Shown: positions 1 to 14,092 of the stretch, in pieces | Layout: every line of letters begins with the position of its first letter | How positions within the stretch are numbered: the stretch's first letter is position 1 | DNA from: a virus | DNA length: 14,092 nt | Direction: 5' to 3' (one strand) | UHGV virus genome: UHGV-1666403 | Notes under the pieces: model-generated | Database searches by the model: none | The model's input: only the letters and a program-made list of their open reading frames with translations | What the model was told of the DNA's origin: nothing | Translations under genes and position numbers: made by a program

Positions 1-106
1 TTGGTGATTTTGAACTTTTGCTTTGCCACGGAACGGTCTGCGTTGTCGGGAAGATACGTGATCTGATCCTTCAACTCAGCAAAAGTTCGATTTATTCAAC
101 AAAGCC
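1..106. mobile_element. IS903-family (IS5 family) insertion sequence, terminal 106 bp only; body of element lies left of the window
   Basis: Reverse complement of 89..106 is GGCTTTGTTGAATAAATC, the 18-bp terminal inverted repeat I recognise from IS903/Tn903. The whole of 1..106 reads as the IS903 end sequence (revcomp GGCTTTGTTGAATAAATCGAACTTTTGCTGAGTTGAAGGATCAGATCACG...CAAAATCACCAA), about one mismatch from the copy I remember. The same 18-mer recurs at 14039..14056. Boundary is +/-1 bp (a C at 107 could extend the repeat). Confidence 0.8.
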
Positions 107-133
107 CCTCCAGTGCTCCAGATATTGAATGGC

Positions 134-736
134 CTATGCCTCCGGCAGTTCAGGCCAGATGACATCCGGCGCGGTGCTGGTATCTGTTGCCACCACCGCG
201 TCAATGTAATCCAGCACAGCGTTAAGTCTGGTTGTTTCTTCCTGCGTAAGTTTACGTCCGGCCTGTAATTTCAGCTGAATCAGACCGACGGAATTCATTG
301 CTGCATCAATCAGTGACTGGCGTTGGATTTCTGCCGCGTCCACTGCGGCGCTACATTGTGCCTCAGTATCCGTCACCCATTTCTCACCATCCCATTTATC
401 GTATGGTGTTAACGGGGCGATAGTGGTTGTATTTTCGGGGTAATCACCCAGAGATGTGATTTCTTTCGATTCTCCTGTTTCGGTGCTATAGACCGTTTCA
501 CCGCGATGGTCTGACACATATTCCCATGAGTTTAAATCTACCGTTCGGCAGATTGCATAACCAGCTTTGTTTGAGCCAGGAGCATCTAAACAGGAATGCG
601 CCGGAATACCGACACCCACCGCAAGATACTCAGTTGATGTGGATATATATTCCCGCGTTTCTCCGTTGTAGTTATAAACGGTAATGAAGCCGGGTTCCGT
701 GGCAATAAATTCACTGTTTAATTTTGCCTGTGTCAT
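134..736 (-). CDS. G: Tail fiber assembly chaperone (P2 G / lambda Tfa family)
   Basis: 200 aa ORF directly downstream of the tail fiber gene. Contains Tfa-family motifs (DHRGETVY, KWDGEKWVTDTEA, and C-terminal TDTSTAPDVIWPELP resembling lambda Tfa VDTSTAPDIEWP). Start ATG at 736 overlaps the H stop (TAATG). Confidence 0.9.
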   Translation of the reverse strand: MTQAKLNSEFIATEPGFITVYNYNGETREYISTSTEYLAVGVGIPAHSCLDAPGSNKAGYAICRTVDLNSWEYVSDHRGETVYSTETGESKEITSLGDYPENTTTIAPLTPYDKWDGEKWVTDTEAQCSAAVDAAEIQRQSLIDAAMNSVGLIQLKLQAGRKLTQEETTRLNAVLDYIDAVVATDTSTAPDVIWPELPEA

Positions 737-1974
737 TATGCAGCCCTCACAATGTAGTTAAATGCAATGTTGCGGGGGCGCGTTTCATTTCCGCCGGTGT
801 CGTCGGTATCTCTGCCTGCACTGCCGTTAAAATCGTATACAGCACCAGTCCCTCCATCTACAGCCCAGGCTCTAAAAAACGAAAAATTGTGGTGGTGCGC
901 TTTAAATAAATCGGACTGCGCCGAGAGAAGCGCGCGCCCTGCATCCACCCCGCGCCCATCATCCCATCCACGAATAAACTCACCGCGTAAATCAGGTAAT
1001 TTATTTGTTGGATAAGCCTTTGCCAGTTCCGGGTATTCTTCAGCAGAAAATGCCGCACCATTGCATTTCAGCCAGCCTGTTGGAGGAGTGGCTGAAGGCC
1101 ACGGAACAGGTACACCAACGGGTAACGCTGAGCCTTCTCCCAAACCAAGGTATGTGAGAAGACCAGCTACATCCTTTCCACTCAAATGAGTCAGCGTATT
1201 GTCCAGCGGTTGTTTACCTGCCAGCGCATTGTTAATGGTGGTACTGAATTTCGGGTCATTGTTAATGGCTGCGGCAATTTCTTTCAGTGTATCCAGCGTG
1301 GCAGGCGCACCGTTAATCAGAGCGGTAATAGCAGCCTGTACAAACGCAGTGGTCGCAATCCGCGTGGTGTTATTTCCTGCGGCAGGCGTCGGCGCTTTTG
1401 GTTCTCCGGTAAATGTCGGATTATGTTTCTGTGCATACTGGGTATGAGGATCCTGTGCGGCAATGTGGTTTCTCATCTGTTCATCCACATACAGCCTTAA
1501 TTCCAGGACTTCATCATCCACGTATTTACGGGTCGCCAGTACCACCGATGGGTCGATTTTCAGCGTAATAGCTTCGGTATTCGTGACAACCAGAATCATG
1601 CGGATAGTCTGGGTACGACCACTGCCTTCCTGCAACTGCGGTTTGTACGTTTCCGGGCAGTTCGCCACCGCAATGAGTACGCCTTCATCATCATAAAGCC
1701 CAATCTCACGGATCCAGAATCCGCCCTCGTTCTCAGGGATGATTTGCTCCGCAATAATCTGGCTCTGGTTGTTCGGGTCAACACTCAGAAGATTCAGCGG
1801 TGCAATGCGTTTCTGATTAATCAGTTTTGTCTGTGCCGGGTCTGGTGTCGGCAAGACACCATTCGCATCACCAACGGCCATTTGCGTCAGATTCAGCTTA
1901 CTGCCGAGCATCGTCGCGTTAGCCAGCCGTGCCGCGCCCTGATTAGTCAGAATGGCGTAGTATTTCACTGTCAT
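736..1974 (-). CDS. H: Tail fiber protein (P2 H-like N-terminal domain; C-terminal tail-collar-type receptor-binding domain)
   Basis: 412 aa. The N-terminus (TQMAVGDANGVLPTPDPAQT, GGFWIREIGLYDDEGVLIAVANCPETYKPQLQEGSGR) matches the conserved N-terminal domain of P2 gpH-type fibers. The C-terminus (LPDLRGEFIRGWDDGRG...GNETRPRNIAFNYIV) looks like a phage tail collar domain. Position between baseplate I and chaperone G. Start overlaps the I stop (ATGA). Confidence 0.9.
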   Translation of the reverse strand: MTVKYYAILTNQGAARLANATMLGSKLNLTQMAVGDANGVLPTPDPAQTKLINQKRIAPLNLLSVDPNNQSQIIAEQIIPENEGGFWIREIGLYDDEGVLIAVANCPETYKPQLQEGSGRTQTIRMILVVTNTEAITLKIDPSVVLATRKYVDDEVLELRLYVDEQMRNHIAAQDPHTQYAQKHNPTFTGEPKAPTPAAGNNTTRIATTAFVQAAITALINGAPATLDTLKEIAAAINNDPKFSTTINNALAGKQPLDNTLTHLSGKDVAGLLTYLGLGEGSALPVGVPVPWPSATPPTGWLKCNGAAFSAEEYPELAKAYPTNKLPDLRGEFIRGWDDGRGVDAGRALLSAQSDLFKAHHHNFSFFRAWAVDGGTGAVYDFNGSAGRDTDDTGGNETRPRNIAFNYIVRAA

Positions 1975-2582
1975 GCGTTTACTCTCAGGTTATCAATTAA
2001 ATGAATGGCCGAGGCCGGGAAATAATCCCCTCCGACAATAATGGCCTCCGGGGTGTAGGGATAAACCGTCAGGGCGTCGCCGTGATAGCATCCCGCACCG
2101 GCAAAAATGTTGCCGGTTGTACTTAAACTGATAGCCAGTCCCGTCAGATGGCGGCTTGCCGGTTTTGCATCAGCAACGAGGCGCTCCAGCTCCTGATACA
2201 TTTCCTCGGTAATACCCTGCTCAAGCACGCCAACAACGATGCGGAACGTCCCCGGCTCCTCGTTGAGCTGCCACCACTCCCTCACCTCAATCAGATAGCC
2301 GAGCGGCTCCACCACACGCCGGATTGCGCCTATAGTGCCCTTATGGCAGTGAATGAAATACGCATCGCGGATAACAGCGCGTTTTGTCGCTTCCGGCCAC
2401 TTATCATCCCAGCGGTCAACCGAAAATGACCACGCCAGCCACGGCAGCAGATTTGCCGGGCAGGTGTCCGGGTTCCACAGCTTACGAATACTGACCGGCG
2501 TTTTTTCAATTTCCGCACAGGCTTTTGCGGCAGCGACTTCAAGCGGTGATGAGCCGGTCGGCAGCAGTCGCGAATCACTCAT
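1971..2582 (-). CDS. I: Baseplate assembly / tail formation protein (P2 gpI family)
   Basis: 203 aa ORF between J and H with P2 synteny; overlaps the J stop by 8 nt. Start could be an internal Met; I did not resolve this. Confidence 0.8.
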   Translation of the reverse strand: MSDSRLLPTGSSPLEVAAAKACAEIEKTPVSIRKLWNPDTCPANLLPWLAWSFSVDRWDDKWPEATKRAVIRDAYFIHCHKGTIGAIRRVVEPLGYLIEVREWWQLNEEPGTFRIVVGVLEQGITEEMYQELERLVADAKPASRHLTGLAISLSTTGNIFAGAGCYHGDALTVYPYTPEAIIVGGDYFPASAIHLIDNLRVNA

Positions 2583-3483
2583 CCGAGCCTCCGGTCACGA
2601 CGCTGTATTCGGTACAGAAAGACGCCTGCGTATTGTTGAGCACGATGTCGGCCAGCGGTGCAGCCAGTTCGACACGCTGCACGCCTTCCACATGCAAAGC
2701 GGCATAAATGGCAGACAGTCGGATGTCGCGCCCCAGCCGGTGCTGTGCCGTGATATACGCTTCCAGTTTTTTCACGGCGGCAGCGCGAATGGGTTCGCTT
2801 TCGGGGCCAGGATAAAGGTAAAGCGTGGCATTTATCTGGTATTCAACGATGACGGCAGACTGCACGGTCACACGGTCGGCCACCGGTCTGACGTCCTCAC
2901 CATTAAGGGCGTTGCGCACCACCGCCAGCAGGTCTTCGGATGCCACACCGTTATTTTCACGTGACAGCACAGAGATGGTGACGCAGGCCGGAGACGGACT
3001 GGTGACAGAAATATCCGCGACACGCCCGTCGGCACTGCGACCATGATACTGATAGGCTCCCACCGACCCGGCGACGCTTAAGCCCTCAAACGCCTGCTGA
3101 ATACGCAGACGATAATCGGTGTCAGACTCCATCACTGCCGGTGTCGGCGGGATGGTCGAATCATCTGCCGGGGTGATAATCAGGCGCGTGGTGTTGTAAT
3201 TGGCACCAATCACATCAAGGTCATTACCGGCGGCACAGGCCAGCATTACCGCCCGTGCGGCCTCATTCACACGCTGACGCCAGATAAGCTCACGATAAGC
3301 ATTTTCCTCCAGCAGTTTGACGAGAGGCTCGGATTCCAGCGTCAGGGTACGGGCAACCGCCTCCTGCTGGTCTTCCGGGTAAAGGGAAATCAGTGTCGCC
3401 TTGCGTTCGGCAAGAATGGTTTCAAAGTCCAGCTCCTCGACCACATCCGGTGCGGGTAGCTGGTTCAGGTCGATAATCGGCAT
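2575..3483 (-). CDS. J: Baseplate wedge protein (P2 gpJ / T4 gp6-like)
   Basis: 302 aa ORF following W, typical size and position for baseplate J. Confidence 0.88.
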   Translation of the reverse strand: MPIIDLNQLPAPDVVEELDFETILAERKATLISLYPEDQQEAVARTLTLESEPLVKLLEENAYRELIWRQRVNEAARAVMLACAAGNDLDVIGANYNTTRLIITPADDSTIPPTPAVMESDTDYRLRIQQAFEGLSVAGSVGAYQYHGRSADGRVADISVTSPSPACVTISVLSRENNGVASEDLLAVVRNALNGEDVRPVADRVTVQSAVIVEYQINATLYLYPGPESEPIRAAAVKKLEAYITAQHRLGRDIRLSAIYAALHVEGVQRVELAAPLADIVLNNTQASFCTEYSVVTGGSDE

Positions 3484-3487
3484 GGTT

Positions 3488-3835
3488 TCAACTCACAGGG
3501 ATGGTTAACGAAAGTGGCTGGCCGGTGTCGCTGTGCTGGCCGGTTAACGTGACCGTCATTCGCCCGTCAAAACTGCGCTCAGTGGTGACGGATGACAGGG
3601 TGACGCGGGGTTCCCATTTCAGCACCGCCATGTAACAGGCGACCTTAATCTGCAACTCAAGCGCCGGGGTCTGCGGCTGGTCAATCATTGACGCCAGCAA
3701 TGAGCCGTAATCACGACGCATCACCCGTGAGCCGACCGGCGTGCGCAGGATATCGCCGATACTCTGGCTGATATGCTCAAGGTCAGTGACAGTCAGGCCA
3801 TCACTGCGATTCATTCCAAGATAACGCGCTGTCAT
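3488..3835 (-). CDS. W: Baseplate wedge protein (P2 gpW / T4 gp25-like)
   Basis: 115 aa, the size and position of GPW/gp25-family proteins. Start ATG overlaps the V stop (ATGA). Confidence 0.88.
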   Translation of the reverse strand: MTARYLGMNRSDGLTVTDLEHISQSIGDILRTPVGSRVMRRDYGSLLASMIDQPQTPALELQIKVACYMAVLKWEPRVTLSSVTTERSFDGRMTVTLTGQHSDTGQPLSLTIPVS

Positions 3836-4467
3836 AGAGGACTCCCGGTTGTGCCGCCGCTGTCGCCGGGGTGTTTATGGGTATGCAGTACCTTACCGTT
3901 TGATGAGAGTTCACCGCCGGTATGTTTAATGTTGCCGCGCATCGTCCCGCCCTTCTGCACTTCCAGCGTGCCGGTAATCAGTCTGTTGGTGCAGACCACC
4001 TCCGGGGTGTCCAGGGTGATGCGGGTTGACGCTTTCACCATGACCACCGGCACCGTGGCAGTAACAGAATCAGAAGCCGTCACGCTGGCCGTTTTAATTC
4101 CGCTTACCGTGAGTGCACTGGTTTCGGGTTCATACTCAATCACCGCCCCGTCAGGGAAACGGATATGCAGGGCATCCGCCGACGTAGACGGCGCGGGGTT
4201 ATCGCCGGAATAAATCCCCGGCAGAACGAACGCCGTGTCGAGTTCACCGCCCACGGCCAGAATCAGCACCTGTTCCCCCACGGAAGGTGCCCACCATGTG
4301 CGCGAACGTCCGGCGCGATGGGTCAGCCACTGAAGCCAGTCGGTGCACATGCCGCCGGTCTGCACACGGCAGCGACCGGCGTTAAGGTCGGTTTCGACGA
4401 TAATGCCGGTGCGGATCATGTTGCGCAGTGCGCGCGCGAGTTCCTGAATATTTGCGAGAGTGTTCAT
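3832..4467 (-). CDS. V: Baseplate central spike/hub protein (P2 gpV)
   Basis: 211 aa, first gene after the S-V intergenic gap. C-terminal His-rich tip (KVLHTHKHPGDSGG) resembles the metal-binding apex of gpV-type spikes. Confidence 0.88.
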   Translation of the reverse strand: MNTLANIQELARALRNMIRTGIIVETDLNAGRCRVQTGGMCTDWLQWLTHRAGRSRTWWAPSVGEQVLILAVGGELDTAFVLPGIYSGDNPAPSTSADALHIRFPDGAVIEYEPETSALTVSGIKTASVTASDSVTATVPVVMVKASTRITLDTPEVVCTNRLITGTLEVQKGGTMRGNIKHTGGELSSNGKVLHTHKHPGDSGGTTGSPL

Positions 4468-4533
4468 AACGGGAAGGATGCCGCCGGGTCATACCGGCGG
4501 CAATGTGCCGATGAGGTGTCGGGAATGGCACAA
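4468..4533 (-). promoter_or_regulatory. Putative internal late promoter region (by position analogous to P2 P_V) with a GC-rich hairpin
   Basis: The only substantial intergenic gap (66 bp) in the tail operon. Perfect 8-bp inverted repeat GCCGCCGG (4480..4487) / CCGGCGGC (4494..4501) with a 6-nt loop. A TGT-N10-ACA dyad at 4517..4532 abuts the S stop. No -10/-35 assignment made. Confidence 0.3.
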
Positions 4534-4986
4534 CTAACGGTCGAGGTGAGCCAGGATAATCTCTTCAATCATCTGCACATCCTCACCGGTAAAGCCGAGC
4601 AGAGGACGCGCCGGATAATCAATTTTCTTACCGTCTTTCCGGTTTTCTTCCGACAGACCGAACTGATGCACACTGGCGATTTTCGGCGACTTCCCGCCGT
4701 AAAACTCCATTGATGCCTGCTCCGGGCTGGCGCGGATATGCAAAAAACGACTGGTGATAAGTTTCGCAAACATTTTTCGCTTAACGCGACCGGTCTTTTT
4801 TCTGGCGCTCTGCTGCTGGCGTGGCACGTAGGGTGTGCCGTCCGGGGCTTTCTGTGCCATCACCCGACGCTGCTGACTCTGCCGCAGACGTTTCGCCAGT
4901 TCGGCACTCAGTCGTCGACGCCCTGACGGTGACAGCGACTCAATCAGTCCGGTCAGCCGGTCTTCAAAACGCTTAAACTCATTCAT
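4534..4986 (-). CDS. S: Tail completion / virion morphogenesis protein (P2 gpS family)
   Basis: 150 aa ORF downstream of R (8-nt overlap), with P2 synteny. Basic central region. Confidence 0.8.
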   Translation of the reverse strand: MNEFKRFEDRLTGLIESLSPSGRRRLSAELAKRLRQSQQRRVMAQKAPDGTPYVPRQQQSARKKTGRVKRKMFAKLITSRFLHIRASPEQASMEFYGGKSPKIASVHQFGLSEENRKDGKKIDYPARPLLGFTGEDVQMIEEIILAHLDR

Positions 4987-5446
4987 CCCACTTGCTCACC
5001 AGTTCGCCATTGATATAAAGCTCCATCGGGCGGGTGACCGGCTCCGGCGGCGTGGGTTCCGGGATATTCTTCACATGCAGCGCGCCGTCCACCTCACTGA
5101 CCAGCGTGCGCTCGGTCAGCATCAGGCTGATGCTGATATCAAAGCTGCTGTCATTGTTGATGTCTGCATAAAACGTGAAGCCCTTTTTCTGACCTTCGTC
5201 AGTGGTCATGATGTCGGGCTGATTTTCCCGCAGCCACGCCAGCACCGGCACGATGAGCAGGTCAAAATCACCGGTAAAGTCGGTCACAATCACATTGAGC
5301 GTGTAACGCTTTTCGAACGACAGCGACGTCGCCAGCGTGGAGGCAATACTCCCGTTATCCACGAATATCCGAAGCATCTCTGGACTGGTTTTCAGCACCG
5401 TGACGGCATCAGTCAGCGCCCTGCGCAGGCTGTCGGGTTTGAGCAT
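4979..5446 (-). CDS. R: Tail completion protein (P2 gpR family)
   Basis: 155 aa ORF immediately after the lysis cassette, with P2 synteny. Start at 5446 lies inside the 3' end of lysC. Confidence 0.8.
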   Translation of the reverse strand: MLKPDSLRRALTDAVTVLKTSPEMLRIFVDNGSIASTLATSLSFEKRYTLNVIVTDFTGDFDLLIVPVLAWLRENQPDIMTTDEGQKKGFTFYADINNDSSFDISISLMLTERTLVSEVDGALHVKNIPEPTPPEPVTRPMELYINGELVSKWDE

Positions 5447-5699
5447 CGTTTTCGTCCTGACAGTGTTTAATCATTTTTACCTGGCTGGCACAGCGTGCCA
5501 GCGCGTTCTCAAGCTGCCGGATATCAGCACTTAAATCGCCGTTCGTCTCCGGGTCACTGCCCGGCATCGGGCAAAGGCTCACTTTCGGGCAGGCGTTGGC
5601 GACAATCACTGGCGTCGGTGCAGGCCGGGCGCTGGTGCAACCGGCGCACAGCATCAGGCAGGTCAGCACCGTACCAGCGGCGAAAATCTTCGTTTTCAT
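5409..5699 (-). CDS. lysC: Outer-membrane spanin lipoprotein (o-spanin; P2 LysC / Rz1-like)
   Basis: 96 aa. N-terminal signal peptide with a lipobox-like LMLCAGC followed by a Pro-rich mature region. Starts in an alternate frame inside lysB (GAGG 9 nt upstream of the ATG at 5699) and extends beyond it. Confidence 0.8.
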   Translation of the reverse strand: MKTKIFAAGTVLTCLMLCAGCTSARPAPTPVIVANACPKVSLCPMPGSDPETNGDLSADIRQLENALARCASQVKMIKHCQDENDAQTRQPAQGAD

Positions 5700-5979
5700 T
5701 CAGTAACCTCGTGATGGTTTTCTCGCGCTGTGCTTCACGCTTCGCGGCGTTTTCCAGCTCCTGACGCAGTGCCACCTGCGCCAGCTCGTTTTTGTCTGCC
5801 CTGGTGAGGGCAACATGAAGCTGATTTTTCAGCATGGTGATGGTCGTCTGCTGCCCGCTGGCGACGTTATTCGCCCTGTCCAGCGAGGCGCGCAGGCTGG
5901 CATTTTTGTGTTTCACCAGAAACAGACCGGACACCGCCAGCGATAACAACACGACCAGCACAATCATCAGCTTTGACAT
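5554..5979 (-). CDS. lysB: Inner-membrane spanin (i-spanin; P2 LysB / Rz-like)
   Basis: 141 aa. N-terminal transmembrane anchor (LMIVLVVLLSLAVSGLFLV) followed by a charged, coiled-coil-like periplasmic domain. Contains the lysC start. Confidence 0.82.
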   Translation of the reverse strand: MSKLMIVLVVLLSLAVSGLFLVKHKNASLRASLDRANNVASGQQTTITMLKNQLHVALTRADKNELAQVALRQELENAAKREAQREKTITRLLNENEDFRRWYGADLPDAVRRLHQRPACTDASDCRQRLPESEPLPDAGQ

Positions 5980-6392
5980 GGTTCCCGCCCCTCAAAACGC
6001 TGACGGCAGGCCGTGCGTATCAGCCGGAAAAACAGTGACGCCACGAGATAAATCAGCGCGGTAAAAATCCATCCGGCGGCGACCAGCGAGATAAATGTCG
6101 CCACCATCACCACCAGAGCCGCCGCCCGTCTGCGCCACGGCACCGGCTGCAAAAACAGCGACGTGACAATCTTCACGGCCAGCGATTCCGGCGGCAGCTC
6201 CCGCCCGTAGCGTTCCAGCACATACTCCGTGGCATACACGCCGACACCACCGGCAACCACACAGATAACCGTCGCCAGAATCGCCCAGGCAGCGACAAAA
6301 CTGACGGCCACGCTCTGCGGGTAAATCAGGGACAGTGCCAGCATCAGCGCCAGCGACACGTTCAGCATCAGTGAAAGGGATAATTTCTTCAT
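5967..6392 (-). CDS. lysA: Lysis timing/regulatory membrane protein (P2 LysA-like)
   Basis: 141 aa, strongly hydrophobic with several predicted transmembrane helices, placed between the endolysin and the spanins as in P2. Confidence 0.75.
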   Translation of the reverse strand: MKKLSLSLMLNVSLALMLALSLIYPQSVAVSFVAAWAILATVICVVAGGVGVYATEYVLERYGRELPPESLAVKIVTSLFLQPVPWRRRAAALVVMVATFISLVAAGWIFTALIYLVASLFFRLIRTACRQRFEGREPCQS

Positions 6393-6406
6393 GGTGTTTA
6401 CTCCGT

Positions 6407-6904
6407 TTAAGCCGGTACGCCGCCAGCGGTACGCCAGACGGTGACCAGTTTTTCCAGTGAATGCTCACGCTGACCGTAACCGGCACCCGGCAGGGACGCC
6501 CAGATATTGCGACAGCGTGAAATGGCGCGCTCAATGCGTCCCGCCCGGATGTCATCCAGTGCACCGCGTTCGCGGATCAACTGAATGGCAAGTCTGTCCT
6601 GTGACAACGGACTGAAATCCGGCAGGGCAAGCTGTTTGCGGTAATGCGGCCAGAACAGGTAAAGCTGCTGATAGCGACCGGAGGCCGTGGATTTTTCACC
6701 GCGACGGTTAAACACCTTCGCCGGTCGGCCATGTGCGAACGGGTGGTCACTGTAGTCGGTGAAAATTTCCGGCTTCCCGTCCAGTCCGGTGACTATCACG
6801 TCATAGCCCCGGTTTTTCGTCAGCGGATGGTTTGCCGTCCCTTCGGACACGGCCAGCATGTCGAGAAAGGCGGCGATATTCTGATGCGTGTTAATAACCG
6901 GCAT
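6407..6904 (-). CDS. K: Endolysin (lambda R-like lytic transglycosylase / phage lysozyme family; P2 K)
   Basis: 165 aa with close motif matches to lambda R: FLDMLAVSEGT (catalytic Glu), GYDVIV, FTDYSDHP, GRYQ, DFSP, RCRNIWASLPGAGYGQ. Start overlaps the holin stop (TAATG). Confidence 0.93.
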   Translation of the reverse strand: MPVINTHQNIAAFLDMLAVSEGTANHPLTKNRGYDVIVTGLDGKPEIFTDYSDHPFAHGRPAKVFNRRGEKSTASGRYQQLYLFWPHYRKQLALPDFSPLSQDRLAIQLIRERGALDDIRAGRIERAISRCRNIWASLPGAGYGQREHSLEKLVTVWRTAGGVPA

Positions 6905-7185
6905 TACGGTTTCCCCCTGCCCTTAAAGCGGCGCTGAATGGCAATCTCAATCACCTGATAACCGGCGATACCCAGCATGGAGCCGATACCGCACACCGCA
7001 GGCAGTGACAGGTCAGGAAACTGCACCAGAACAACACCGGCAACCATCGAGACAAAACCACCGAGCAACATGCGCCCGATAAACAGACGCGGGGTGATGG
7101 GTTCACCACCGGCAAGCACCTTGCCGACAACAATCAGCACCCCAATCATGAAAAGCGACAGGACGCTTTTTTCTTCTGCTGTCAT
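6904..7185 (-). CDS. Y: Holin (P2 Y)
   Basis: 93 aa with hydrophobic transmembrane segments and a charged C-terminus (RRFKGRGKP), immediately upstream of the endolysin. Confidence 0.85.
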   Translation of the reverse strand: MTAEEKSVLSLFMIGVLIVVGKVLAGGEPITPRLFIGRMLLGGFVSMVAGVVLVQFPDLSLPAVCGIGSMLGIAGYQVIEIAIQRRFKGRGKP

Positions 7186-7188
7186 GCG

Positions 7189-7392
7189 TTACTCCCACAG
7201 ATTGACAGTTTCAGCCACGGGCGCGGTCTGAACGTCGGGCAGTTCGACGGCGGTGCCGTGTGGCAGCACCGCACCCAGTTCAGCCAGTCCCGGATTTGCG
7301 GCGAGCACGGTCTCAACCACGCCCTCAGTGCGCCCGTAATACCGGACACAAATGGCGTCGAGCGTGTCGCCCTGTAGCGCAAAGGTCTTCAT
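7189..7392 (-). CDS. X: Tail protein X (LysM-like; P2 gpX)
   Basis: 67 aa from the internal ATG at 7392 (MKTFALQGDTLDAICVRYYG... LysM-like motif). This ATG overlaps the L stop (ATGA). The longer 90-aa ORF in the track would run into L and is rejected. Confidence 0.85.
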   Translation of the reverse strand: MKTFALQGDTLDAICVRYYGRTEGVVETVLAANPGLAELGAVLPHGTAVELPDVQTAPVAETVNLWE

Positions 7393-7901
7393 CAGATTTG
7401 ACTCACGATGCAGCGCGGCTTGTCCTGGATGCGCGCCACTGCCCAGCGCATATCCCGCCACAGCTCATCAATGGTGCTGTCAATGCTGTCGGCCTTCTTG
7501 TCGCCTTTCGCACTGGCATCCACACCGCGATAACGTTCATAAAGCGACGCGGTCGCCATCGCACACACGGCGCGCTCGTAGTAAAAAACTTTGATGCTTT
7601 CACCGTCGATGTCGTCCGCCGGGACGTCCGCCAGACGCGTAAAACCGGCGGCAATTTTCTGTTCGCGGTACTCGTACAGCTCCGCATTCGTCTCCGCCAT
7701 GCCTGACTTGATGGCCTCACGCAGACGGGCGGGGGCGACGGTCTGCTCAAGGCGCATACGTTCCCGGACGCGCTTCGGGTCGATATCGGGAAAAAAGAAC
7801 GTGTTTTTAATCACCGGCTCGTCGCCTGCCGGTTGCGGGATGACCACCGTACCCTCACCGGACACGGGAGCCTCCTTTCGCGGAATAATCAGCGTCATCA
7901 T
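7392..7901 (-). CDS. L: Head completion/stabilization protein (P2 gpL)
   Basis: 169 aa from the ATG at 7901 (MMTLIIPRKE...), which has a GAGG Shine-Dalgarno 6 nt upstream. The ORF-track start at 7961 lacks a comparable ribosome-binding site. Confidence 0.85.
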   Translation of the reverse strand: MMTLIIPRKEAPVSGEGTVVIPQPAGDEPVIKNTFFFPDIDPKRVRERMRLEQTVAPARLREAIKSGMAETNAELYEYREQKIAAGFTRLADVPADDIDGESIKVFYYERAVCAMATASLYERYRGVDASAKGDKKADSIDSTIDELWRDMRWAVARIQDKPRCIVSQI

Positions 7902-8000
7902 GACTACCTCTGAAAAGTCGGGCGGTGGACGCCGGTGCAGTGTCAGGTGATTCACCCTCACTGACCGGCGTGCCGCCCTGGCGCGGGGCGCATTCGGTTG

Positions 8001-8738
8001 TTAACTGGCTTTCTTTTTCGGGCGTCCACGTTTTGCCGGGGGCGCACTCCGGGTCTTACGCGGGGCGCGGGTGACCGCTTTTGGCTCCGGCTTCGGTTTC
8101 AGCTCCCGCTCCAGTCGTTCAATCTCTTTTTTGACGCCTGCCTGACAGTCGAGCTGTGTCGCACGTTGCAGATGCGCCAGCGCCCCTGCGGCATCACCAG
8201 CGTCACGCAGAAACAGACCGGTGATTTTGTGCAGCTTTGCGCGCACTTCATCAGGCATGTCAGCCGTGGCGGTCAGTTCAAGGGTCTCCGTCAGCAGGCG
8301 GGTATCCACAGACTCACCGGCAGCGTGAGCGCGCATGGCCGCAAGCGCGACCTCCTCGGTGAACATGTACGGCGGGGTACGGCGGTGTTTACCCGGCATG
8401 GTCAGACCGTACTTCAGGGCATAACGGGCAATCTCCAGCGCACCGGCAATATCGCCGGTATCCAGACGCCACAGCATGACCGTCATCAGAATGTCATCCT
8501 GTGCACCTTTGCCCTGCTCCAGCACGCCGTTCACCCACGACAACCAGAACGGCAGCAGTTCGCGTTTTTTCGCGGCCTTCAGCTCTTTTGAATAAATCGC
8601 TTTCAGTGTGCGCTGGTCTGCGGCGAGCTTAACCAGCATCTGCTCATAGACAGTTGCATGTCGCAGCGGGGCGGCTTCCCGCTGCGCGGTCATCGCTGCC
8701 GAGACCCGCATCATGTGGCGCTGTGCGGGACTCGTCAT
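8001..8738 (-). CDS. M: Terminase small (endonuclease) subunit (P2 gpM)
   Basis: 245 aa with P2 synteny between N and L. Strongly basic C-terminal tail (RAPRKTRSAPPAKRGRPKKKAS). Confidence 0.88.
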   Translation of the reverse strand: MTSPAQRHMMRVSAAMTAQREAAPLRHATVYEQMLVKLAADQRTLKAIYSKELKAAKKRELLPFWLSWVNGVLEQGKGAQDDILMTVMLWRLDTGDIAGALEIARYALKYGLTMPGKHRRTPPYMFTEEVALAAMRAHAAGESVDTRLLTETLELTATADMPDEVRAKLHKITGLFLRDAGDAAGALAHLQRATQLDCQAGVKKEIERLERELKPKPEPKAVTRAPRKTRSAPPAKRGRPKKKAS

Positions 8739-8741
8739 CGG

Positions 8742-9815
8742 TTACGCTCCCGGCTCTGCGGTCGCTTTAGCCAGTGTGGAGAAATCACCGACCTTAATTT
8801 TTTCCACCAGACAACCGGCGGCGTAGTCTTCCACCACGTAATCAATGTTCATTGACTCGTAGTTCTCCACGCGGTCGAGTTTCGGGTTTTCCTCAATCAC
8901 GCGGCGATGGCTGTCATCCATGTAGTAGATGGACAGGTTTTCCAGCTTTGTGATGAGCATCGCATCCGCCGGGAAGTACGGGACGCGTACCGCCGGCAGG
9001 TTACCGATGCGTTTCTGGCTGATGATGACGTCAGCGGCCAGCATTTCGCTGTTGTCCTGCTCCTTGTTGACGATGGGAAAATACTTGTCCGCCAGTAGCT
9101 GACGTCCCACAATCACCACAAGGTCAGGGTCTTCCTGATACCACGGCTCAATCAGGTTGTTGGTCGCATCCATCACCAGTGCGTCAAGGCTGGCATAATC
9201 ACCGCCCTTACCCACGCGGATAACCTCAGAGGTGGTGTGCCCTTCCTCGTCAGTGACCTTGCTCATCACGCGCGCCGGTGCTTCATTGCGGTATTTCTGC
9301 AGCCAGCCGACCGCCACATCCTGTAGCATCGGATTACTGCTGCGGTCAGAGGTTTCGGCACGCCTCACGCCGTTAAAACCGGCCATGATGAAATCAAGGG
9401 ACTGGCGTTTGATAATGGCGTTACGGACACGGAGCTGGAAATCCTGATAACGCGCCCACAGGTCAAGCGTTTTGTAGCGGATATAAAAATCGAAGTTAAT
9501 CTGGTCGCATTCGTACTTGTTTGACGCCAGCTTCGAGAAGTCCTTCGGCTGACGCTCGGTGCCACCGGCGGTGTCGCTGGTGCTGGCGATGGAGCCGGTG
9601 ACACCAATACCAATTTTTTCCCCTTTCATTTCGCTGACCGGCACAATGTTGATGCGGGTCAGAAAGTCAGAGGACTCCTGCATGGTGTTCATCAGGGTCT
9701 GGGTGACCGACGGTTCAACGGTGAATTTTTTCGACACATCACCGGCGTCGATGCCGTTCAGTTCGGCAACACGGGACAGGTAGGCATTAAATTTAAAGCG
9801 GGTTTCCTGGCGCAT
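8742..9815 (-). CDS. N: Major capsid protein (P2 gpN)
   Basis: 357 aa, the longest head ORF, directly after the scaffold gene. AGGA ribosome-binding site 8 nt upstream of the ATG at 9815. Confidence 0.93.
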   Translation of the reverse strand: MRQETRFKFNAYLSRVAELNGIDAGDVSKKFTVEPSVTQTLMNTMQESSDFLTRINIVPVSEMKGEKIGIGVTGSIASTSDTAGGTERQPKDFSKLASNKYECDQINFDFYIRYKTLDLWARYQDFQLRVRNAIIKRQSLDFIMAGFNGVRRAETSDRSSNPMLQDVAVGWLQKYRNEAPARVMSKVTDEEGHTTSEVIRVGKGGDYASLDALVMDATNNLIEPWYQEDPDLVVIVGRQLLADKYFPIVNKEQDNSEMLAADVIISQKRIGNLPAVRVPYFPADAMLITKLENLSIYYMDDSHRRVIEENPKLDRVENYESMNIDYVVEDYAAGCLVEKIKVGDFSTLAKATAEPGA

Positions 9816-9873
9816 AGTTTTTCCTGAAATTAAGGGTTAATCGTGAAGGTTTTCCCGGACTGACTGACGCCGG

Positions 9874-10728
9874 TTAGCAGTTCGTCATCAGGGCGTCACC
9901 GCCACCGCCGGTGGCTTTACTGCGGCGCTGCTGGGTCAGACTTTCGGTGTGGTCGAGACTGTTTTTCAGGCGGGTGAATGCCTGACTGGTTTCATCCGCC
10001 CTGTCAGTCACATCCTGCTTAAGTGCGGAAAAGGCGGTTTCCATCTCAGCAAGGCGCTGCTCAGTGGCGCTCAGTTTTTCCTGCACATGCTCAGCGACAG
10101 CGGTCACCGCTTCATGCACGTCATTCAGACGGGCGTCATCGCTGGCCTGTTTGCGGCCAAAAATGGATTTCACCTTTTCGGTCAGGGCTGTGAACACGGT
10201 TTCAGGCAGGTCTTCAAATTCCAGCTCAACAGGCGTTGCCACTGAAATCAGGTTTTCAGGGCTTAATTTGAAGCGGTTCAGGGGGTTGTGTTTTGCCGTG
10301 CGGCAGAATTCCAGGTATTCCGTGCCGAGGCTTGCCGGGTCATCGGTGACGGCCAGACCCACCAGATAACATTTGCCGGTATTGGCAAAGTTCGGCTGAA
10401 TTTCCATTGAGGTATAGACCTTCTGCGCGGCCTTGTTCATCGCGATAAGGTCATCGGTCGGGGTGATTTTCGCAAACAGCGCCCATTTGCCTTTCAGCGC
10501 CGAATCGTCGTCAATCTTTTCGGCCTTCAGTTCGGCCACATCACCATAACGTTTAAAAATACCGTCAGGCAGGATGCCGCGCAGATGTTCCAGGTTAATG
10601 CGGCAACCATAGACTCGCGGGTCAAAGGTTTCGGCCATTTCCTGAATATCCTGCGCACTGATGACACGCCCGTCACAGGTGTCACCCTCAACGCCGATAC
10701 GAAAGAATTTTGAGACTTTTTTTGCCAT
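9874..10728 (-). CDS. O: Capsid scaffolding protein (P2 gpO)
   Basis: 284 aa from the ATG at 10728 (MAKKVSKFFRIGVEGD...). C-terminal coiled-coil-like, Ala/Glu-rich region. First gene of the leftward head operon. The ORF-track 5' extension to 10794 is rejected. Confidence 0.9.
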   Translation of the reverse strand: MAKKVSKFFRIGVEGDTCDGRVISAQDIQEMAETFDPRVYGCRINLEHLRGILPDGIFKRYGDVAELKAEKIDDDSALKGKWALFAKITPTDDLIAMNKAAQKVYTSMEIQPNFANTGKCYLVGLAVTDDPASLGTEYLEFCRTAKHNPLNRFKLSPENLISVATPVELEFEDLPETVFTALTEKVKSIFGRKQASDDARLNDVHEAVTAVAEHVQEKLSATEQRLAEMETAFSALKQDVTDRADETSQAFTRLKNSLDHTESLTQQRRSKATGGGGDALMTNC

Positions 10729-10901
10729 TGTCAGGAGTCCTGAATAGTGATTAGAGGAGTCACATGTCGGCATCAGTTTCCCGACGATGCGCATCCTCCG
10801 CCATCAGTCCCGGATGGCTTATCACTGACACAACAGCACCTTAGCGAATCGCGGGGCGCGACTAAGTAGCCTTGCCGTGTATTCATCACGGCGAGGTATT
10901 C
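10729..10901. promoter_or_regulatory. Divergent control region between the O...head/lysis operon and the P-Q operon; presumed late promoters
   Basis: 173-bp non-coding gap between divergent starts. Dyad GTCGG-N10-CCGAC at 10766..10785 and perfect dyad CCGTG-N7-CACGG at 10875..10891 just upstream of the P ribosome-binding site (GAGG 10893..10896). Promoter hexamers not assigned. Confidence 0.5.
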
Positions 10902-12674
10902 ATGACCATCACCACAGACACCACTCTTTTACACGACCCGCGTCGTCAGGCGGCGCTGCTGTACTGGCAGGGGTTTTCCGTGCCGCAGATTGCCGCCATG
11001 TTGAAGATGAAACGCCCGACGGTGCAGAGCTGGAAACAGCGCGACGGCTGGGACAGTGTTGCCCCCATCAGCCGTGTCGAAATGAGTCTGGAAGCGCGGC
11101 TGACCCAGCTCATCATCAAACCGCAGAAAACCGGCGGTGACTTCAAGGAAATTGACCTGCTGGGACGCCAGATTGAACGACTGGCACGGGTTAACCGTTA
11201 CAGTCAGACCGGCAACGAGGCAGACCTTAATCCGAACGTCGCTAACCGCAACAAAGGCGGGCGGCGCAAACCGAAAAAGAATTTTTTCAGTGACGAGGCC
11301 ATCGAAAAGCTGGAGCAGATTTTCTTTGAGCAGTCTTTCGAATATCAGTTGCACTGGTATCGCGCCGGGCTTGAGCACCGCATCCGCGATATCCTGAAAT
11401 CCCGCCAGATTGGCGCGACGTTTTATTTTTCCCGCGAGGCGCTGCTGCGCGCCCTGAAAACCGGCCATAACCAGATTTTTCTGTCGGCCAGTAAAACGCA
11501 GGCGTATGTGTTCCGTGAATACATCATCGCCTTTGCCCGTCTGGTTGACGTTGACCTGACCGGTGACCCGATTGTCCTGGGCAATAACGGCGCAAAACTG
11601 ATTTTTCTCGGCACCAACTCCAATACCGCGCAGAGCCATAACGGCGACCTGTACGTCGACGAGATTTTCTGGATCCCGAATTTTCAGGTACTGCGTAAGG
11701 TGGCATCAGGTATGGCCTCACAGAGCCACCTGCGCTCGACCTATTTCTCCACCCCGTCCACGCTGGCGCACGACGCCTACCCGTTCTGGTCGGGTGAACT
11801 GTTCAACCGGGGACGCGCCAGCGCCGCCGAACGCGTGGAAATCGACGTCAGTCATAACGCCCTTGCCGGAGGTCTTCTCTGTGCGGACGGCCAGTGGCGA
11901 CAGATTGTCACCATTGAGGACGCCCTGAAAGGCGGCTGCACGCTGTTCGACATTGAGCAGCTCAAACGCGAAAACAGCGCCGACGATTTTAAAAACCTGT
12001 TCATGTGTGAATTTGTTGACGACAAGGCGTCGGTGTTCCCGTTCGAGGAGCTGCAACGCTGCATGGTCGACACGCTGGAAGAATGGGAAGACTATGCGCC
12101 GTTTGCCGCCAATCCGTTCGGCTCCCGCCCGGTATGGATTGGTTACGACCCGTCACACCGTGGCGACAGCGCCGGATGCGTGGTGCTGGCACCGCCGGTG
12201 GTGGCCGGAGGTAAATTCAGAATACTTGAGCGTCACCAGTGGAAAGGCATGGACTTTGCCACTCAGGCGGAATCCATCCGCAAACTCACCGAAAAATACA
12301 ACGTCGAATACATCGGAATTGATGCCACCGGCCTCGGTGTCGGCGTGTTCCAGCTCGTGCGCTCGTTCTATCCCGCCGCGCGCGACATCCGCTACACGCC
12401 GGAAATGAAAACCGCAATGGTGCTCAAGGCCAAAGACGTTATCCGCCGTGGCTGTCTGGAATATGACGTCAGCGCCACCGACATCACCAGCTCGTTTATG
12501 GCTATCCGCAAGACCATGACCAGCAGCGGACGCAGTGCCACCTATGAGGCCAGCCGCAGCGAGGAAGCCAGCCACGCCGACCTCGCCTGGGCGACCATGC
12601 ACGCCCTGTTAAATGAGCCACTCACCGCCGGTATCAGCACCCCGCTGACATCCACCATTCTGGAGTTTTACTGA
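10902..12674 (+). CDS. P: Terminase large (ATPase) subunit (P2 gpP)
   Basis: 590 aa from the ATG at 10902, with GAGG 5 nt upstream. Divergent from O and co-oriented with the portal, as in P2. The TTG-initiated 600-aa version in the track is rejected. Confidence 0.92.
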   Translation: MTITTDTTLLHDPRRQAALLYWQGFSVPQIAAMLKMKRPTVQSWKQRDGWDSVAPISRVEMSLEARLTQLIIKPQKTGGDFKEIDLLGRQIERLARVNRYSQTGNEADLNPNVANRNKGGRRKPKKNFFSDEAIEKLEQIFFEQSFEYQLHWYRAGLEHRIRDILKSRQIGATFYFSREALLRALKTGHNQIFLSASKTQAYVFREYIIAFARLVDVDLTGDPIVLGNNGAKLIFLGTNSNTAQSHNGDLYVDEIFWIPNFQVLRKVASGMASQSHLRSTYFSTPSTLAHDAYPFWSGELFNRGRASAAERVEIDVSHNALAGGLLCADGQWRQIVTIEDALKGGCTLFDIEQLKRENSADDFKNLFMCEFVDDKASVFPFEELQRCMVDTLEEWEDYAPFAANPFGSRPVWIGYDPSHRGDSAGCVVLAPPVVAGGKFRILERHQWKGMDFATQAESIRKLTEKYNVEYIGIDATGLGVGVFQLVRSFYPAARDIRYTPEMKTAMVLKAKDVIRRGCLEYDVSATDITSSFMAIRKTMTSSGRSATYEASRSEEASHADLAWATMHALLNEPLTAGISTPLTSTILEFY

Positions 12675-13708
12675 TGAGCAAGAAAAAAGGGAAAACACCG
12701 CAACCTGCGGCCAAAAAAATGACCGCCAGCGCCCCGAAAATGGAAGCATTCACCTTTGGCGAGCCGGTACCGGTACTCGACCGCCGTGACATTCTGGATT
12801 ACGTCGAGTGCATCAGTAACGGCAGATGGTATGAACCACCGGTCAGCTTTACCGGTCTGGCAAAAAGCCTGCGTGCTGCCGTGCATCACAGCTCACCGAT
12901 TTACGTCAAACGTAATATTCTGGCCTCAACATTTATCCCGCATCCGTGGCTTTCCCAGCAGGATTTCAGCCGCTTTGTGCTGGATTTTCTGGTGTTCGGT
13001 AATGCGTTTCTGGAAAAGCGTTACAGCACCACCGGTAAGGTCATCAGACTGGAAACCTCACCGGCAAAATATACCCGTCGTGGCGTGGAGGAGGATGTTT
13101 ACTGGTGGGTGCCGTCCTTCAACGAGCCGACACCTTTCACGCCCGGCTCCGTGTTTCACCTGCTGGAGCCGGATATCAATCAGGAGCTGTACGGCCTGCC
13201 AGAATATCTGAGCGCCCTTAACTCTGCCTGGCTGAATGAGTCGGCCACGCTGTTCCGCCGCAAGTATTACGAAAACGGCGCTCATGCCGGATATATCATG
13301 TACGTCACCGATGCCGTGCAGGACCGCAACGATATCGAAATGCTTCGCGAAAACATGGTTAAGTCGAAAGGCCGCAACAACTTTAAAAATCTGTTTCTCT
13401 ATGCCCCGCAGGGGAAAGCTGACGGCATTAAAATTATCCCGCTCAGTGAAGTGGCAACGAAGGACGATTTTTTTAATATCAAAAAAGCCAGCGCCGCTGA
13501 CCTGCTGGACGCGCACCGCATCCCCTTTCAGTTGATGGGCGGCAAGCCGGAGAACGTCGGGTCACTGGGCGATATTGAGAAAGTGGCAAAGGTCTTTGTC
13601 CGCAATGAGCTTATCCCGTTACAGGACAGGATTCGGGAAATAAACGGCTGGCTCGGTCAGGAGGTCATCCGCTTTAAAAACTACTCACTGGACACTGACA
13701 ACGGCTGA
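12674..13708 (+). CDS. Q: Portal (capsid portal vertex) protein (P2 gpQ)
   Basis: 344 aa. ATG at 12674 overlaps the P stop (TGATG). Followed by a terminator and the cos site, as at the P2 left end. Confidence 0.92.
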   Translation: MSKKKGKTPQPAAKKMTASAPKMEAFTFGEPVPVLDRRDILDYVECISNGRWYEPPVSFTGLAKSLRAAVHHSSPIYVKRNILASTFIPHPWLSQQDFSRFVLDFLVFGNAFLEKRYSTTGKVIRLETSPAKYTRRGVEEDVYWWVPSFNEPTPFTPGSVFHLLEPDINQELYGLPEYLSALNSAWLNESATLFRRKYYENGAHAGYIMYVTDAVQDRNDIEMLRENMVKSKGRNNFKNLFLYAPQGKADGIKIIPLSEVATKDDFFNIKKASAADLLDAHRIPFQLMGGKPENVGSLGDIEKVAKVFVRNELIPLQDRIREINGWLGQEVIRFKNYSLDTDNG

Positions 13709-13713
13709 ACATC

Positions 13714-13736
13714 GCCGCCTGCGGGCGGCTTTTTTA
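13714..13736 (+). terminator. Rho-independent terminator downstream of Q
   Basis: Perfect GC stem GCCGCC (13714..13719), loop TGCG, GGCGGC (13724..13729), followed immediately by TTTTTT (13730..13735), 6 nt after the Q stop. Confidence 0.65.
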
Positions 13737-13877
13737 CACCCCGTCATCACGCCCTCACACGCTCACCACAGCACAAAACATCCCGCAAACACACCAACAC
13801 CCCAACGGGCAGACTAAACGCCGCCACGACGCGCTCAGACGCTGAAAAAATAAAATCAGCACCACCGCCAGCGCGCA

Positions 13878-13896
13878 GTGCTTTCCCCGCCTCGCC
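13878..13896 (-). other. cos site: P2-type 19-nt cohesive end sequence
   Basis: 13878..13896 is GTGCTTTCCCCGCCTCGCC, whose reverse complement GGCGAGGCGGGGAAAGCAC is the cohesive-end sequence I recall for P2. It sits about 170 bp beyond the Q stop, as at the P2 left end. Confidence 0.7.
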
Positions 13897-14038
13897 CGCC
13901 CGCTTCATGGGTCGGTTTGAATGCAGTTGAATTACAACTACCAAACCAAGCAATCCCTACTATTACGCAGAAAATGCATACTGAAATACCTCGTGCAAAT
14001 TGATGCAGCTAAGTATGCATAGGTTTTATGCCTCAACG

Positions 14039-14092
14039 GGCTTTGTTGAATAAATCAGATTTCGGGTAAGTCTCCCCCGTAGCGGGTTGTGT
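14039..14092. mobile_element. IS903-family (IS5 family) insertion sequence, first 54 bp only; body of element lies right of the window
   Basis: 14039..14056 is GGCTTTGTTGAATAAATC (the same 18-bp terminal repeat as at 89..106, in inverted orientation), followed by AGATTTCGGGTAAGTCTCCCCCGTAGCGGGTTGTGT, which I recognise as the opposite IS903 terminus. Confidence 0.8.

Follow-up and report, generated by a model that had tools for sequence, protein, structure and literature searches.

The 142-bp stub that separates the cohesive-end site of a P2-like prophage from an insertion sequence (positions 13897-14038) is the right flank of a P2-family cos and, in our judgement, probably consists of an extended terminase-recognition region followed by an 18-bp cargo-side tail, with IS903B inserted beyond it. 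The window, by which we mean the whole stretch of 14,092 nucleotides that was analysed, is a piece of a P2-like (Peduovirus) prophage whose gene content runs through tail, lysis and head genes to gpP and gpQ. Its cos 19-mer is identical to the annotated cosR of P2 (NC_001895), lies 170 bp downstream of the end of gpQ and is located between gpQ and the right-arm genes; intact relatives have gpQ, cos, cargo and gpA in this order. The stub is flanked by this 19-mer (13878-13896) and by the end of IS903B (14039 onward), exactly where an earlier description, made by a model from the letters of the window without database searches (the sequence-only reading), had placed its borders. That reading also correctly assigned the stub to the right arm beside a P2-type cos, bordering the accessory locus of old and tin and truncated by an IS, and its low GC content is borne out: 43.0% for the whole stub, with 51% over 13897-13935 and 39.8% over 13936-14038, against 56% in positions 1-13877 of the window. 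The coordinates of the individual features are collected in Table 1.

Table 1. Features of the window around cos, with offsets (+) counted from the end of the cohesive-end sequence
Feature	Position	Strand	Remarks
gpP	10872-12674	+	
Portal gene gpQ	12674-13708	+	Upstream of cos
gpQ terminator	~13713-13735	+	In the gpQ-cos intergenic region
Terminator-like hairpin and T-run just left of cos	13859-13874	-	Consensus match only
cos cohesive-end 19-mer GTGCTTTCCCCGCCTCGCC, the reverse complement of P2 GGCGAGGCGGGGAAAGCAC	13878-13896		Exact match
Right half of the conserved cos core, +1 to +36	13897-13932		P1 plus degenerate inverted partner
Box P1, ATGCA, +25	13921-13925		Inside near-repeat TTGAATGCAG
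Degenerate inverted partner TGAAT, +32	13928-13932		Consensus TGCAT
Spacer, +37 to +96	13933-13992		Sequence varies between lineages, length constant
Left arm of the inverted repeat, with an extra ATGCAT at +78 inside the spacer	13974-13982		Lineage-specific
Distal box D1, GTGCAAA, +97	13993-13999		Consensus cATGCAAA, one substitution
Distal box D2, ATGCA, +107	14003-14007		Inside near-repeat TTGATGCAG
Right arm of the inverted repeat, holding distal box D3	14012-14020		D3 is ATGCAT, 14015-14020, +119 to +124
Cargo-side tail, +125 to +142 (18 bp)	14021-14038		Cross-lineage conservation absent past about +125
18-bp terminal inverted repeat GGCTTTGTTGAATAAATC of IS903B	14039-14056		
Terminal 54 nt of the IS903B copy	14039-14092	+	Window ends inside the IS

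The surroundings of cos have features of their own. Over the gpQ-cos intergenic region (13700-13900), C greatly exceeds G on the plus strand, with a GC skew of about -0.45, and the region is conserved among P2-like phages, not in P4. Some RefSeq and phage records list a hypothetical protein for a 68-aa open reading frame that runs across cos on the minus strand (13747-13953); we rejected this frame as coding. Among 48 unique relatives in-frame stops are absent, but its variable sites are distributed evenly over the codon positions (21/42, 18/43 and 19/43), and the open frame is more probably a by-product of the G-rich minus strand than a gene. At the far end of the window, positions 1-108 near the tail-fibre assembly genes represent a different variant, and nearly all close E. 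coli relatives match from about 107-110 only.

A plain similarity search with 13936-14038 matched one phage only and returned nothing beyond +40 in other phages, a result that first suggested cargo-specific DNA; the conservation of short boxes in this segment is visible only by position-anchored motif analysis, with positions taken from the cos end. From 120 viral contigs that carry the cos 19-mer, we obtained 57 representatives whose segments from +36 to +92 are less than 60% identical in pairwise comparison, and boxes were counted over 56 of these, the window's own lineage being left out. ATGCA is present at +24 to +26 in 50 of the 56 lineages (box P1), and its inverted partner, TGCAT, at +31 to +33 in 33; further copies of ATGCA are found at +95 to +98 in 46 lineages (box D1), at +105 to +108 in 45 (box D2) and at +115 to +121 in 31 (box D3). 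As background, the occupancy of ATGCA is 0.5-1.2% in windows of the same size from +140 to +400, and 0 in the spacer. The boxes also keep their distances from one another, D1 and D2 being spaced by exactly 10 bp in 37 of 38 lineages and P1 and D1 by 71-73 bp in 39 of 41. Between about -9 and +36, the columns of 55 dissimilar lineages have a high information content; the spacer columns are unconserved, and column conservation between lineages is gone after about +125. Lineages that share a spacer and differ downstream usually diverge at about +118 to +135, that is, at the end of the box cluster.

P2, P4, 186 and PSP3 all carry boxes at +25, +97, +107 and +116-120, with D3 at +119 in P2 and at +120 in P4 and 186. 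MAFFT aligns the window, P2, 186, PSP3, YpM_22 and P4 without gaps, and in this alignment the TGCAA of D1 and the ATGCA of D2 are invariant. An exact ATGCA is missing at D1 or D2 in about 10 of the 56 lineages, and the D1 of the window itself reads GTGCA; with this one substitution, the window has the complete extended layout of P1, D1, D2 and D3. Its flank from +1 to +36 is conserved in at least 55 lineages, including P2, P4, 186 and PSP3, and backbone relatives with other cargo cease to match at 13926-13936. The two near-repeats remarked on by the sequence-only reading (TTGAATGCAG, 13917-13926, and TTGATGCAG, 14000-14008) are present as described and turn out to be boxes P1 (+25) and D2 (+107), so that they belong to the conserved cos layout. 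Judged by comparison of the sequences, about 125 of the 142 bp of the stub are cos-flank architecture common to P2, 186, PSP3, P4 and more than 50 lineages with unrelated cargo.

The spacer and the distal boxes show further peculiarities in individual phages. In many lineages, for example 186, PSP3 and P4, there lies midway along the spacer (about +48 to +68) a GC-rich palindrome of the CCGCGCCAGCTCTGGCGG type, which is absent from P2 and from the lineage of the window. In P2 (NC_001895), a TTGAAT over box D3 is placed as the -35 element of the old promoter, as deduced from old-tin transcript starts at +149 to +151; a cos box and a cargo promoter may thus overlap in P2, and some boxes may have other uses.

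Phage vB_EcoM-569R9 and E. coli prophages, for example that of FDAARGOS_1261, match the stub with 100% identity up to exactly position 14038. Alignment to relatives, which had been proposed as a check, identifies the neighbour: 10 bp past 14038, in intact relatives, a minus-strand gene of 610 aa ends with its stop codon; it is located between cos and the replication gene A. The encoded cargo protein matches DUF7380 (E = 5e-39) and the PADLOC defence-candidate family PDC-S39 (E = 1e-84), with a weak match, below the Pfam cut-off, to DUF4209, a HEPN-superfamily domain (PMC3710099). Of 5426 complete E. coli genomes, 55 contain the 103 nt of 13936-14038, and the cargo gene is found in the same 55, the two being directly contiguous among the records listed in both searches. 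Since the 55 genomes link the segment to the cargo, and backbone relatives stop at 13926-13936, everything beyond about +36 is inherited with the cargo in this lineage; because spacer and boxes are inherited in this way, linkage alone cannot separate a function in cos from a function in the cargo. The stub contains no cargo coding sequence. The suggestion that it is the tail end of a low-GC cargo region therefore stands as far as its contiguity with one cargo gene is concerned, but does not describe the roughly 125 bp that are cos flank.

Work by Odegrip et al. from 2006 is said to bear likewise on the accessory-gene locus between gpQ and gpA of P2, that of old and tin. This interval is an accessory and defence hotspot of P2-like phages, in which P2 carries old and tin (Rousset et al. 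2022, PMC9122126). The locus is the same in our case, and the neighbour in relatives is a single-gene cargo (DUF7380/DUF4209, equivalent to PDC-S39), whereas the window holds only the cos-side boundary of the hotspot and 18 bp of intergenic tail.

The perfect 9-bp inverted repeat was also read correctly, its arms ATGCATACT (13974-13982) and AGTATGCAT (14012-14020) being fully complementary and 29 nt apart, and six of its nine bases are the self-complementary hexamer ATGCAT. To estimate what chance would produce in the stub, we used 1000 dinucleotide-preserving shuffles. A perfect inverted repeat of at least 9 bp (loop 3-60) arose in 29 of them, which is marginal (p ~0.03); the five copies of TGCA were equalled in 8 shuffles and the six copies of ATGCA/TGCAT in a single one, and by these lower frequencies the enrichment of the motif is a stronger signal than the inverted repeat. 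Were the inverted repeat considered alone, its marginal probability and the lack of any fold signal would allow it to be a meaningless feature of AT-rich DNA, and the 55 near-identical genomes carry no covariation information to set against this. We nevertheless give almost no credence to chance as an account of the inverted repeat and the near-repeats together, as the motif count is so rarely reached in shuffles and three of the four motif copies fall on positions that are conserved across more than 45 independent lineages. A chance origin fails for the boxes; for the extra copy at +78 it is possible.

Whether the repeat is conserved in relatives has a divided answer. The right arm is box D3, found in 31 of the 56 lineages, while ATGCA occurs between +38 and +90 in none of the 56 (0/56), so that the left-arm copy is absent there and peculiar to the window's lineage. 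We regard the inverted repeat as a pair of palindromic ATGCAT boxes, one conserved and one lineage-specific, plus three further matching inner bases, and as neither a hairpin nor an operator.

The sequence-only reading had taken it for a terminator or operator, and one could indeed picture the stub as the 3' trailer of a low-GC cargo gene and the repeat as the minus-strand terminator of that gene or an operator: the stub is strictly linked to a DUF7380 cargo that is transcribed toward cos and ends 10 bp beyond it, its GC content is low like that of the cargo, and on the minus strand UUUUCU follows the hairpin. We consider this very unlikely. On neither strand of the stub did a promoter and terminator scan return a candidate site of either kind, and a search of 13600-14092 against Rfam gave no match at an E-value of up to 1. 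With its AT-rich stem, 29-nt loop and only four U, the repeat falls short of what defines an intrinsic terminator, a GC-rich stem with a short loop and a U-tract after it. RNA folding, likewise proposed as a check, went against the idea, in that the repeat gives folds of no greater stability than shuffled sequences do (z of -0.6 on the plus strand and about -1.0 on the minus strand, where the repeat folds with -13 kcal/mol; the stub as a whole has a z of -0.8). When the whole minus-strand RNA is folded, the minimum-energy structure leaves the inverted repeat unused. The right arm, moreover, is a box that recurs in phages whose cargo is unrelated and may have the opposite orientation, and the left arm is confined to this lineage among those sampled. 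Covariation of the two arms is unobtainable from the 55 genomes, which vary only at 13946, at 13971 and by a 1-nt indel near 14033, leaving the arms untouched. For transcripts running from the hotspot toward cos, the terminator scan offers a sole terminator-like site, the minus-strand hairpin at 13874-13859. The reading had itself named two outcomes as telling against a terminator or operator, namely a segment that aligns as conserved core in all P2-like phages and a repeat that is absent from relatives and lacks a stable predicted structure, and what we found corresponds largely to these.

Beyond the stub, homology to intact relatives ends exactly at 14038, and the 54 visible bases of the IS (54/54) are identical to IS903B copies in more than 5000 plasmid records. 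Its terminal inverted repeat and all 54 bases agree with IS903B, a member of the IS5 family of which a single end is visible in the window, its transposase gene and the target duplication being situated past the window's end. The element sits at +142/+143, outside all conserved boxes and 10 bp downstream of the position that the cargo stop codon has in relatives; nothing shows that a gene has been lost, and the lost or displaced gene that had been envisaged is without support. An independent IS903B is found in E. coli EC9952 (NZ_CP104595.1, ~21802-23040), inserted at +159 after the cos of a P2-like prophage that carries other cargo. That element, whose annotation reads IS5-like IS903B family transposase, is oriented like the one in the window, is bordered by a 9-bp duplication, TCGTTTGGG, and lies just outside the ATGCA boxes with the cargo retained; its end differs from that of the window by one base. 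Because the IS903B of EC9952 is a simple insertion that left the cargo in place, a simple insertion is also the most economical guess for the window. The IS junction of the window was found neither in genome_contigs, metagenome_contigs or viral_contigs nor in any complete E. coli genome, and the predicted far junction (the 9-bp duplication GCCTCAACG followed by TATACGTTATCA) is missing too. The two IS903B cases hint at a preferred or tolerated target zone, two being too few for a conclusion. A different element is found in E. coli CH436 (NZ_CM166356.1), one of the 55 genomes, in which an ISEc12 of the IS21 family lies in the spacer at about window position 13970, at or near the left arm, and separates the cos core from the distal boxes; the CH436 prophage should be unpackageable if the boxes matter for packaging.

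We consider it probable that the boxes are recognition sites of the P2 terminase, most likely of its small subunit gpM, and that they would be needed for packaging. The flank consists of a core half with P1 and its inverted partner, a spacer of fixed length and free sequence, and a distal cluster at +97, +107 and +119 that ends at about +125. The boxes would position terminase to nick the 19-bp cohesive-end sequence, much as the R sites of lambda cosB do; packaging of satellite P4 by its helper would require that they be retained; and the distal cluster would set the cos-side limit of the gpQ-gpA hotspot. IS903B inserted at +142/+143, outside the boxes. P4, a satellite packaged with the P2 terminase, is reported to have essentially nothing but the cos site in common with P2 (PMC9594776, PMC9122126). 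We infer a role in terminase recognition because P4, in spite of this minimal overlap, keeps the distal boxes at the same distances, and because the Pseudomonas phage phiCTX, with a different cohesive end, has a similar layout built from a different repeat. In the accessible literature, we found no experiment that ties the distal boxes to terminase; only the 55-bp cos core is spoken of there.

Positional conservation by itself names no binding partner, and the boxes might be real and linked to cos and yet serve something other than terminase, such as a host architectural protein, the anchoring of the DNA end in the virion, or cargo exchange, for which they would be a recombination landmark. 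The last of these would suit the clustering of cargo junctions right at the end of the box cluster, and cos ends have been speculated to promote recombination at the hotspot (PMC9122126), but a 5-bp box is too short for recombination homology. We hold such a non-terminase role to be unlikely, given that the boxes are kept in P4, which is reported to have essentially only the packaging signal in common with P2 (PMC9594776), and that the arrangement in phiCTX, where a different repeat with similar spacing accompanies a different cos, fits a site that evolves together with the phage protein recognizing it. By eye, the boxes matched neither an IHF-like nor a Cox-box-like consensus, and these readings were dropped.

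Returning to terminase recognition, a more specific proposal is possible, though we regard it as rather doubtful: the distal cluster (+95 to +125), lying at a constant distance of about 72 bp from the cos core, could be a second and formally undescribed terminase-recognition element that would be common to P2-like and 186-like phages and P4 satellites, with a co-varying version in phiCTX. If so, cos would extend over about 145 bp rather than 55 bp, and the element would explain why the defence hotspot always starts about 125 bp from the cohesive end.

The stub is in itself an ordinary, already-sequenced cos flank that lies beside a common IS at the edge of a known hotspot. With all conserved boxes spared by the IS, the packaging signal of the prophage looks intact, and for annotation the loss of a neighbouring defence-candidate gene is a statement to be corrected as unsupported. 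The fixed box layout provides a practical rule for marking the end of cos and the start of the cargo in P2/P4 hotspots. By the same layout, part of the signal may be missing from P2/P4 cosmid vectors that rely on the 55-bp cos; transduction of P2/P4 cosmids is better with longer cos flanks (PMC9594776).

In papers that cite Ziermann & Calendar 1990 (PMC3931495, PMC9594776, PMC5694545), the P2/P4 cos is described as 19-nt cohesive ends within a conserved core of about 55 bp, which we take to correspond to the high-information bases around cos, including 13897-13932. The window agrees with the P2/P4 cos in the cohesive-end sequence, in the place of this sequence downstream of gpQ and in the flank from +1 to +36; it differs in that the partner of P1 is TGAAT, not TGCAT, and, compared with the cited core, the stub adds a spacer and distal ATGCA boxes that lie outside it. 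P2 has been reported to package from monomeric circles. In lambda cosB, the R3, R2 and R1 sites for the small terminase gpNu1, together with an IHF site, lie beside cosN. The likeness is that several short repeated boxes stand to one side of the nicking site, with fixed distances and a spacer between them, whereas the sequences are unrelated, the protein that would bind the P2 boxes is a presumed one, and an IHF-like consensus was not seen in the stub by eye. The phiCTX record (NC_003278) annotates repeats R4-R6 spanning cos, and CTGCR occurs at +24, +33, +79, +95 and +105 from the cos end. The repeat is thus CTGCR and not ATGCA, the cohesive end is a different one of 21 nt and the host is Pseudomonas; nevertheless, the positions are close to the +25, +32, +97 and +107 of the P2 group, and the extra copy at +79 resembles the extra ATGCAT that the window carries at +78.
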